Assembly: GCA_036565605.1 (NCBI GenBank) | Contig: DATCXV010000009.1 | Location: 4,977-68,976 of the forward strand | Source: Minisyncoccota bacterium | GTDB lineage: Bacteria > Patescibacteriota > Minisyncoccia > Phycocordibacterales > UBA6065 | Direction of reading: 5' to 3' | DNA: 64,000 bases | In this document: positions 1 to 1,051 of the stretch, piece by piece | How positions within the stretch are numbered: position 1 is the stretch's first letter | How the letters are laid out: each line of letters starts with the position of its first letter | Notes under the pieces: model-generated | The model's input: only the letters and a program-made list of their open reading frames with translations | What the model was told of the DNA's origin: nothing | Database searches by the model: none | Position numbers and translations under genes: made by a program

Positions 1-285
1 GTTGATGTCACGTTCCTAGCAAAAAGGAAGACGACGGCCCAAGAGGTGAATCAGATATTGCGCGATGCGGCCAATGATCCGCGCTGGAAGGGTATCTTTG
101 CTGTTACTGATGAACCGCTTGTCTCGTCTGATATCAAAGGCAATCCGCACGCCTCGATCGCCGACCTTGAAATGACTCGCGTCGTCGATGGTGATCTGGT
201 CAAAGTGCTTTCGTGGTACGACAATGAGATGGGGTATACGCATACTCTCGTTCAGCACGTAATTAAAGCCGGTCAGAACTTATAA
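1..285 (+). CDS. gap: glyceraldehyde-3-phosphate dehydrogenase, C-terminal fragment (5' end outside window)
   Basis: In-frame translation from nt 1 ends ...VLSWYDNEMGYTHTLVQHVIKAGQNL*, the conserved GAPDH C-terminus (WYDNE motif); stop at 283-285. Confidence 0.9.
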   Translation, partial: VDVTFLAKRKTTAQEVNQILRDAANDPRWKGIFAVTDEPLVSSDIKGNPHASIADLEMTRVVDGDLVKVLSWYDNEMGYTHTLVQHVIKAGQNL

Positions 286-288
286 TAA

Positions 289-711
289 GTGACACAAGAT
301 TTCTCTAAAAAAATGACAATCGTATTGCGAGAAGATTTAGCTTCTTGGCAACTTACAAATACGATTGGACATATTGCGGCTTATCTTGGAAACAAGATGG
401 AGGAGCCGTTCGATACTGGAGAAAACTTTGTCACTAAAGATAATCTGGCTATCCCAAGAAATTCTCAATTCGCAATTGTTGCCCTAAAAGCTTCAAATGA
501 AGAATTAAAGAATTTAAGTGGTCAGCTTCGTAACTCAGTATTGTCCTGGATAGTGTATGTTCAAGAAATGATCGACATGATTGATGATAAAGAACTTGCA
601 AGGTCATTAAGTCAGATCGAATCAGATAAATTGAATATACTCGGAATAGGACTCTTTGGTTCGAAAGACGAACTAAAGAAAATTACTGGTAACCTGAAGT
701 TATGGAAATAA
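289..711 (+). CDS. DUF2000-family protein (PTH2-like fold), hypothetical
   Basis: 140 aa; N-terminal KMTIVLREDL...IGHIAAYLG resembles the PTH2-type peptidyl-tRNA hydrolase start; C-terminal LNILGIGLFGSKDELKKITGNLKLWK resembles the DUF2000 C-terminus (family name from memory). GTG at 289, and ATG at 313 is the more likely start. About 32% GC versus about 50% in flanks. Confidence 0.6.
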   Translation: MTQDFSKKMTIVLREDLASWQLTNTIGHIAAYLGNKMEEPFDTGENFVTKDNLAIPRNSQFAIVALKASNEELKNLSGQLRNSVLSWIVYVQEMIDMIDDKELARSLSQIESDKLNILGIGLFGSKDELKKITGNLKLWK

Positions 712-728
712 CGTGGAACGAAAACTAA

Positions 729-785
729 CTAAGTTATACGCATACGTTAGCCCAACACGTCATCAAAGCAGCAAAGGAACTCTAA
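729..785 (+). pseudogene. relic second copy of gap 3' end (LSYTHTLAQHVIKAAKEL*)
   Basis: Read in frame, nt 735-785 encode YTHTLAQHVIKAAKEL*, versus YTHTLVQHVIKAGQNL* at the end of the intact gap (nt 238-285). The match is at protein level with many synonymous DNA differences. A stop codon lies just upstream at 726-728, so this is only a remnant. Confidence 0.55.
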
Positions 786-1051
786 TTCGTCTCTCAACAA
801 AGCTTCCGCAACGAACACCGGACATTTTTCCGGTGTTTTTGCTAGGTTGGCAAACCCCGGTTCACCTTCGTTAGGATACCAACCTATTTTTCTGCCCAAA
901 ATGGAGAAAAGATTTCTGCTAATATTGGTTACATGATTAAGAACCATCTGCGCTTGCACGAGGTCTTTATAAATTCACTGGAGGGAAATTAGGAATTCAC
1001 GTATATCTAAATGATTTCACAGAATTTCTTCTAAAGAGAAAATCTAACTGG

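Follow-up and report, generated by a model that had tools for sequence, protein, structure and literature searches.

A decayed copy of the gap 3′ end lies behind a horizontally acquired DUF2000 gene in Candidatus Paceibacterota

In a 64,000-nucleotide stretch of DNA (the window) from a genome of Candidatus Paceibacterota, a lineage of the Candidate Phyla Radiation (CPR/Patescibacteria), the glyceraldehyde-3-phosphate dehydrogenase gene gap is followed directly by a gene for a DUF2000 protein, and a second, diverged copy of the gap 3′ end stands behind that gene. The question raised by this locus is how a single gene came to lie between two versions of the end of its neighbor. The original prediction took the arrangement for the footprint of an element that integrates at the 3′ end of gap and carries its own replacement end. 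Our analysis leads, with middling confidence, to a different reading: a cassette of approximately 0.5 kb, made up of the DUF2000 gene and a gap-tail copy of approximately 72 nt but no integrase of its own, moved horizontally among divergent Paceibacterota and landed exactly at the end of gap. The features on which the argument turns are listed here (L numbers denote the loci used for comparison).

1–285, + strand: gap (type I glyceraldehyde-3-phosphate dehydrogenase, GAPDH), 3′ part; Pfam Gp_dh_C, E = 4.2e-17; homologues are named Ca. Paceibacterota GAPDH
214–288, + strand: functional gap tail T1, WYDNEMGYTHTLVQHVIKAGQNL followed by two stop codons, the upstream repeat copy, defined by tail comparison
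289–711, + strand: DUF2000 gene, 140 amino acids, its GTG start codon lining up with the ATG start codons of homologues; horizontally acquired; Pfam DUF2000, E = 6.6e-24
712–787, + strand: gap-tail relic T2, a CG junction and 24 codons, non-coding; identified by tblastn, shuffles and a nucleotide scan, and recurring in L118 and L014

The gap 3′ end is present in two copies

The whole gap gene, of 344 amino acids, is seen at 4229–5263 of L001, an independently assembled ENA contig of 96.7 kb, and the target gene is thus full length. Its product has the Gp_dh_C domain and the conserved C-terminal motif SWYDNE(M/W)GY of type I GAPDH, and it ends in GYTHTLVQHVIKAGQNL, with a TAA stop codon at 283–285 and a second TAA at 286–288. 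At an offset of exactly 500 nt from 214–285, positions 714–785 contain a decayed 24-codon copy of this end. The copy starts at a W codon (714), 2 nt past the DUF2000 stop, is interrupted by an in-frame stop at 726–728 and encodes YTHTLAQHVIKAAKEL and a final stop at 735–785. Read through, it gives WNEN, stop, LSYTHTLAQHVIKAAKEL, stop, against WYDNEMGYTHTLVQHVIKAGQNL and stop in T1, and it keeps the W..N....YTHTL.QHVIKA of the GAPDH C-terminus. The coordinates and sequences first given for the gap end and its second copy were confirmed, with two adjustments: the segment 735–785 is correct as far as it goes but the relic really begins 21 nt further upstream, at 714, and the match between the copies is 12/16 residues plus the stop codon instead of the 13/16 residues reported. 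In the comparisons that follow, T1 is also labeled F_win, T2 is the window relic, and the functional tail and relic of L118 are F_118 and R_118.

The probability that this similarity arose by chance, or from an assembly chimera, is close to nil, and its short length is the only point that favors such an origin. A tblastn search with the 94-residue gap C-terminus against all 64 kb returned the relic at E = 1.6e-6, with the second-best match at E = 0.025. The best ungapped BLOSUM62 score in 289–3308 was 84, compared with 28.0 ± 3.2 and a maximum of 43 in 300 dinucleotide shuffles, so that the shuffled-sequence significance test proposed with the original prediction was passed, and a nucleotide scan using the window's own tail placed the relic at z = 9.2. 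Because the independent contig L001 is 100% identical to window 1–12000, the gap–DUF2000–relic structure is real and not an artifact of assembly; recurrence in L118 and L014, described below, points the same way.

T1 and T2 are identical at 48/75 nucleotides. Their mismatches at codon positions 1, 2 and 3 number 8, 2 and 15 (Fisher p = 0.0013), and seven of the eight differences within the stretch YTHTL(V/A)QHVIK are synonymous. Judged by this pattern, most of the divergence arose while each copy belonged to a working gap gene. The mostly synonymous differences therefore mark two functional gap alleles and not a decaying in-place duplication, which bears out the earlier view of the second copy as the non-functional 3′ end of another gap allele and no recent tandem duplication. 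The accompanying suggestion that this allele came from a different lineage holds only narrowly: both window tails have THTL.QHVIKA, which marks the clade that the window itself belongs to. The search for the relic peptide in the gap genes of other genomes yielded no donor: a degenerate HVIKAAKEL-stop pattern gave 0 matches in metagenome contigs, and the AAKEL ending was found in 0 of the 120 best GAP homologues. The longest exact match between T1 and T2 is 11 nt, TATACGCATAC, and is not conserved between the two copies of L118; no inverted repeat was found within 712–790.

The DUF2000 gene is foreign to its host

The product of the gene at 289–711 covers positions 1–133 of the 133-position DUF2000 domain (PF09391), with 84.8 bits against a gathering cut-off of 25; its match to PTH2 reaches 21.2 bits, under the cut-off of 23. 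Its sole solved relative, 2GAX (Atu0240), is uncharacterized, no papers on DUF2000 were found in the literature, and nothing relevant emerged on carriage of DUF2000 by phages, plasmids or IMG/VR entries. The gene is probably translationally coupled to gap, with read-through expression from the gap promoter.

Its composition (GC 0.357; GC at third codon positions, GC3, 0.32) departs from that of the adjoining gap (GC3 0.56) and of neighboring host genes (GC3 0.45–0.58). At four-fold-degenerate sites, the window's DUF2000 gene is identical to those of L010, L015 and L118 (the last a 2.5-kb ENA contig with a GAP protein 66–67% identical to the window's) at 0.69, 0.71 and 0.66 of positions, respectively, whereas gap reaches 0.24, 0.30 and 0.33 in the same genome pairs, which is saturation; for rpiB and tktN, compared between the window and L010, the values are 0.22 and 0.20. 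Among all four genomes the range is 0.57–0.71 in DUF2000 against 0.23–0.38 in gap, and the flanking genes overall (gap, rpiB and tktN) span 0.16–0.38. The protein identities in these pairs are 67–74% for GAP, 46–48% for RpiB and 83–89% for DUF2000. In the control pair L010/L014 (TktN 87% identical), the divergence of DUF2000 (0.40) is similar to that of its neighbors (0.35–0.49), and DUF2000 is therefore under no special synonymous constraint. On this measure, the four DUF2000 alleles of the window, L118, L015 and L010 passed between divergent hosts long after the hosts themselves had separated, and the description of DUF2000 as foreign cargo bracketed by the two tails is upheld by both GC3 and four-fold identity.

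The same values make it very improbable that an ancient, vertically inherited gap–DUF2000–relic arrangement was repeatedly lost in relatives. Such a history would agree with the presence of DUF2000 in the interval between gap and the downstream gene rpiB in several lineages, and direct repeats would ease a precise loss. However, a four-fold identity of 0.66–0.71 beside flanking genes at 0.16–0.38 is incompatible with co-descent, the GC3 of DUF2000 mismatches its host, and more distant DUF2000 genes are found elsewhere: none of 15 GTDB loci has the gene in the gap–rpiB interval, and in the sole one with a gap match, L020, gap lies approximately 7 kb away.

The insertion site is empty in close relatives

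The nearest gap relatives (L005, L007 and L009) are 86–88% identical at the amino acid level. In L007 and L009, rpiB begins 8–11 nt after gap and the site is empty; in L005, one unrelated minus-strand open reading frame (ORF) stands between the two genes. Tight gap–rpiB adjacency was also found in at least approximately 10 more distant CPR loci, a few having unrelated small ORFs in between, and is the common CPR state. A metagenome survey with RpiB, in which the relatives among the matches listed were 43–59% identical, is informative on gap–rpiB adjacency and relic-free inserts only; among the matches listed, no gap-tail relic was found in gap–rpiB insertions that lack DUF2000. Relics were found next to DUF2000 only, and the tail duplication is therefore a property of the cassette and not of the site.

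DUF2000 itself lies inside the gap–rpiB interval in a low-GC clade (L010, L014 and L112/L113), together with homologues of ORF127 and ORF179/181, and DUF2000 genes at 76% identity or less are located elsewhere, for example in the order secA–DUF2000–DUF2007. The comparison of gap–rpiB junctions that had been called for thus finds the interval empty in L007 and L009, occupied by other cargo elsewhere, and with the same cargo behind gap in other lineages.

The same junctions recur in divergent hosts

On L118, gap ends in VRHVSEVGKTIK and a stop, followed by DUF2000 from its ATG, then TAG-CG, and then a relic that reads stop, HDNEARYTN, a frameshift, AVQHVIKAEMQV and stop. Homology between the two loci runs from window position 1 to 787 and ends at the relic stop codon, with identities of 71% in gap, 63% in the functional tail, 82% in DUF2000, 67% in the relic and 47% in the next 110 nt. 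The DUF2000–relic junction is the same in both (TAA/TAG, CG, then TGG/TGA). An uncalled small lineage-specific ORF (MKTKLTLIIIGIVLVILLGC..., lipoprotein or membrane-like) occupies 1484–1700 of L118, 2 nt past the relic stop, a position that resembles what a native gene directly after gap might show.

L014 carries a more decayed, AT-enriched relic, again 2 nt past the DUF2000 stop (z = 9.0), which is of the type of L014's own clade. Within 4029–5290 of the same contig, which is also L111, there is a tyrosine integrase (Pfam Phage_integrase, E = 1.1e-24), 197 nt upstream of a gap 3′ fragment, KLPAWYNNEMGYTNTLVRHVIEAGRLIK and stop, that is well preserved and lacks its 5′ part; no intact gap was found within 10 kb upstream of the integrase. 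L014 thus has two gap-tail relics, one on either side of ORF179–DUF2000.

In L010, a promoter-like leader is separated from DUF2000 by 25 nt that its relative L014 lacks and that share homology with the ends of the gap tails ahead of DUF2000 in the window, L015 and L118. This shows a tail end joined physically to the start of DUF2000 away from gap. The leader is a conserved non-coding segment of approximately 150 nt upstream of DUF2000 in the low-GC clade (L010 5829–5975; L014 5855–5995). It contains a T-run, the -10-like TGTGATAAAAT and a long hairpin, CACCTCTTGAG...TTCAAGAGGTG, in which two pairs are compensatory. It has no Rfam match and may act either as a terminator joined to a promoter or as a regulatory RNA. 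L015 (820–900) and L010 (6423–6530) have another DUF2000 right flank in common, GGTAAAA(G/T)AAAACCGC..., with a terminator-like hairpin in place of the relic; recently exchanged DUF2000 alleles therefore occur with two or more types of 3′ flank.

The relic appears to travel, at least in part, with DUF2000

In the core of the tail, R_118 matches the window-clade tails at 28–30 of 38 positions, best of all F_win (30/38, z = 12.3), whereas its match to L118's own gap tail is no better than chance (22/38, z = 0.6). The window and L118 relics are identical at 0.67 of positions, which matches the value for the neutral, four-fold sites of their DUF2000 genes (0.66), and in their first seven codons four of the six deviant positions are common to both (p ~0.03, by our own count). 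The functional tails beside related DUF2000 alleles are not co-inherited: F_win and F_118 agree at 23/39 core positions, and the third-position identity of F_win and the L015 tail is approximately 0.4 (saturated), versus 0.70 inside DUF2000. In at least one host, L118, the copy behind DUF2000 appears to have arrived with DUF2000 while the gene's own tail stayed in place. Because the L118 relic is unlike the L118 tail and the functional tails are not co-inherited, the relic would at least partly travel with DUF2000; given that L014 carries a relic typical of its own clade, the tail copy must be replaceable as well, as crossovers at different points of the tail would make it.

Two further approaches were set aside. 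Assigning the native tail by synonymous similarity had no power, since even the closest relatives available (86–88% identical in amino acids) are saturated, with gene-wide third-position identities of 0.37–0.41. Comparisons over 24 nt of the last codons of the functional tails (0.71–0.75 among the window, L015 and the L010 remnant) are suggestive of these codons traveling with DUF2000, but too noisy.

These results bear directly on the integrating element first proposed, in which T1 would be a full replacement tail brought in at the W codon of gap and T2 the displaced native tail of the window's lineage. We regard it as a doubtful but serious contender. T2 bears the signature of the window's clade and is closest to L009 (30/39), and lineage-specific DNA with a terminator lies directly past its stop. 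In three genomes the relic begins at the same codon, 2 nt past the end of DUF2000, which is what a precise site-specific crossover would yield, the L014 relic is of its own clade's type, and a tyrosine integrase adjoins the truncated gap tail in L014. Set against these points are the separate inheritance of the functional tails and the fact that T1, whose core agrees best with the tails of L007 and L009 from its clade (31–32/39), is at least as near to clade relatives as T2; the L118 relic is unlike that genome's own tail, the element has no integrase, and one metagenome pattern scan for the T2 tail (…AQHVIKAAKEL and stop) found nothing. The tail of the intact gene thus does not look element-borne, and an integrase is absent both from the insert and from beside it, so that neither the replacement end nor the integrating element is supported as first stated. 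Part of the relic may be host-derived in some genomes, but because part or all of it appears to travel with the cassette, it need not be the displaced native end of the window's gap.

A proposed mobile cassette without an integrase

We infer the mechanistic details of the cassette from five loci and short sequences; the model is the simplest one that accounts for every junction. The mobile form would be a circle, or a linear fragment bearing both tail copies, in which the tail copy joins the DUF2000 stop (stop, 2 nt, TGG...) as well as the DUF2000 start (tail stop, then ATG/GTG). Recombination of the cassette's tail copy with the resident gap tail would insert the cassette, regenerate gap intact, reading straight into DUF2000 directly after the gap stop, and leave a second, useless tail copy behind DUF2000, ahead of downstream DNA that belongs to the recipient. 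The position of the crossover in the tail seems to vary from event to event, and the relic would then be partly or wholly cassette-borne, as in L118, and perhaps partly host-derived elsewhere. One candidate for the enzyme is a tyrosine recombinase of the host that acts in trans; the other is DNA uptake followed by homeologous or illegitimate recombination.

A number of observations weigh against the cassette. Between lineages the tails are 58–80% identical over approximately 70 nt, a low value that speaks against plain recombination of the RecA type. No recombinase is present in or beside the cassette (286–3308, with only DUF2000 between the repeats), the nearest being 17 kb away; an identical att-like core common to all tails was not found, and the relic has no special DNA fold (z = -0.08). 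Neither an excised form nor an empty-site strain variant was observed; the 25-nt tail end joined to the DUF2000 start in L010 supports an excised circle or attP junction only indirectly. Loci with a downstream relic number three only (the window, L118 and L014), the group of recent exchange comprises just four DUF2000 alleles, and L015 shares the gap–TAATAA–DUF2000 junction with the window but lacks the relic. The tails are short, so that their clade assignments rest on 38–39 nt, and with L118 the single genome sampled from its close kin, its lineage may have a native VQHVIKA tail.

An alternative needs no dedicated mobility: a single illegitimate or homology-facilitated event would have set DUF2000 and the tail duplication behind gap, with the relic as a passive hitch-hiker, and the later spread and low synonymous divergence would come from ordinary homologous exchange of DUF2000 and its immediate flanks among lineages that had the gene already. 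DUF2000 is highly conserved across CPR (76% mean column identity), which makes recombination within the gene feasible, and the homology blocks between loci mostly start and stop at the edges of the gene. The right flanks differ, with a relic in the window and L118 and, in L015 and L010, a terminator-like flank of unrelated sequence, and in the low-GC clade DUF2000 looks vertically inherited within the gap–rpiB interval, its L010/L014 divergence being like that of its neighbors. This history would, however, require DUF2000 to have been at the identical position already in the window, L118 and L015 lineages, and the window's nearest relatives are without it. A neutral relic as old as the host splits, which are synonymously saturated, should moreover be unrecognizable, and a clade-A-type relic in L118 would need import of the flank too. 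We judge such a history rather unlikely.

A stronger form of the cassette reading can be proposed tentatively. In this form, one promoterless gene and a decoy of the last ~24 gap codons would make up a "target-mimic" cassette that homes to the gap end across divergent Patescibacteria without a recombinase of its own; its mobilization would fall to a Xer-type tyrosine recombinase of the host or to recombination driven by transformation, and its decoy would be refreshed from each host.

The remainder of the interval and its surroundings

Beyond the relic, the interval continues to rpiB, and one further gene of relevance lies at a distance:

801–848, + strand: terminator-like hairpin and U run; RNA fold -21.5 kcal/mol, z = -4.0, 0/200 shuffles as good
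788–2956, no strand: low-GC accessory stretch of approximately 2.1 kb with ORF100, DUF3800, a Zn-ribbon-like ORF and a palindrome; GC 0.27–0.46 versus 0.47–0.55 in the host
1052–1354, within this stretch: ORF100, no Pfam match
1643–2440, within this stretch: DUF3800; Pfam DUF3800, E = 1.9e-11
2741–2902, within this stretch: Zn-ribbon-like ORF, 53 amino acids
2920–2956: perfect 18+18-nt palindrome at the GC boundary (GC ~0.3–0.4 to ~0.5), from a repeat search
2959–3285, - strand: ORF, upstream neighbor of rpiB
3309–3797, + strand: rpiB, far edge of the variable interval; Pfam LacAB_rpiB, E = 1.2e-40
17735–18727, + strand: tyrosine recombinase (Xer/integrase-like); Pfam Phage_integrase, E = 3e-34

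The hairpin is located 15–27 nt past the relic stop and probably terminates the gap–DUF2000 transcript. The low-GC block 788–2956 is not common to L118 (identity past the relic is 47%, i.e., random), and it is placed outside the cassette because it is not shared. DUF3800 homologues, the nearest 53% identical, were uninformative on the origin of the island, no convincing direct or inverted repeats bound the whole of 286–2956, and an Rfam search of the interval and the L010 leader gave nothing over noise. The recombinase at 17735–18727, 17 kb away, is 25% identical to the L014 integrase that adjoins a gap-tail relic. It is no more than a candidate for action in trans.

A JGI soil-metagenome contig, Ga 3300000363 ICChiseqgaiiFebDRAFT_11495961 (L002), starts at window position 781, 5 nt before the relic stop codon, and is identical to the window in the rest of its length. 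Its start could reflect upstream differences among strains, some having the cassette and others not, or just low coverage. Downstream, at 3804–5100, a pair of neighboring type IV pilin-like genes (N_methyl motif, with Laminin_G_3 in addition in the first) lie between rpiB and rpe and have an 88% identical 66-nt 5′ segment (3819–3884 versus 4601–4666). Relatives have zero to three pilin-like genes at the rpiB–rpe junction, which makes it a second place at which the pentose-phosphate operon varies.

Parallels among described mobile elements

The mobile elements and gene-flow routes of Patescibacteria (CPR) are poorly charted, their genomes being tiny and holding few recognizable integrative elements. 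The present locus is a concrete, datable inter-lineage transfer of one gene into a core glycolysis/pentose-phosphate operon, with the footprint of entry kept, and it flags DUF2000 (PTH2-like) as an accessory gene that selection has repeatedly kept co-transcribed with gap. If the cassette model is true, a conserved-gene tail, a small ORF and a decayed tail copy would form a searchable signature for metagenome-assembled genomes; if the target-mimic form is true, it would constitute a new, very small class of CPR mobile element and a general means of adding accessory genes to a core operon with high expression.

After natural transformation, homology-facilitated illegitimate recombination allows foreign DNA to be acquired beside a conserved anchor gene, and CPR bacteria encode competence-type pili. 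The usual products of this process are deletions or simple insertions, whereas here the same two junctions recur in unrelated hosts. An integron gene cassette, likewise a promoterless single ORF of approximately 0.5 kb behind an expressed gene, was considered and ruled out: there is no attC-like fold (z = -0.08) and no IntI/attI, and the repeats are target-gene sequence.

Integrative mobile elements exploiting Xer (IMEX) integrate at dif through the host's XerCD. Integration by a host tyrosine recombinase of this sort, with none encoded by the element, would explain the missing integrase, and Xer-like recombinases are encoded in the window (17735–18727) and beside the L014 gap-tail relic. Unlike IMEX, the cassette would target the tail of a protein gene and not dif; no dif-like site was identified, and the recombinases are candidates only.

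Genomic islands and integrative and conjugative elements (ICEs) that target the 3′ ends of tRNA or protein genes carry a replacement end, so that the end of the target is duplicated, the gene stays functional and relatives have empty sites. The cassette resembles them in its direct end repeats (214–285 and 714–785), the intact gap, the empty sites and the presence of the same element in other hosts. It differs in that an integrase is absent, the cargo is a single gene, and the distal copy, not the gene-completing one, is suggested to be element-borne in at least one host.

The closest parallels are the cis-mobilizable elements (CIMEs) and microCIMEs, decayed derivatives of ICEs and of integrative and mobilizable elements (IMEs), found in the 3′ ends of streptococcal fda, rpsI and rpmG, which keep their att sites but are without recombination and transfer genes; microCIMEs measure 130–220 bp and have no gene, and CIMEs measure 1.2–13 kb (PMC7563491). 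The cassette, at 0.5 kb and one gene, falls between the two. CIMEs are, however, defined by att sites shared with an autonomous parent ICE or IME, and no autonomous element whose att site is a gap tail was found here, only the L014 integrase beside a truncated gap tail; the repeats of the cassette are 72 nt long, diverged and without a demonstrable identical core, and the hosts are Patescibacteria and not streptococci. Like a CIME, the cassette keeps its end repeats and is missing all recombination and transfer genes, and it shares with CIMEs a position at the 3′ end of a housekeeping gene (fda being glycolytic as well), direct repeats of that end, an intact target and a small cargo. The cassette would work in the manner of CIMEs and 3′-end-targeting islands without necessarily belonging to them.

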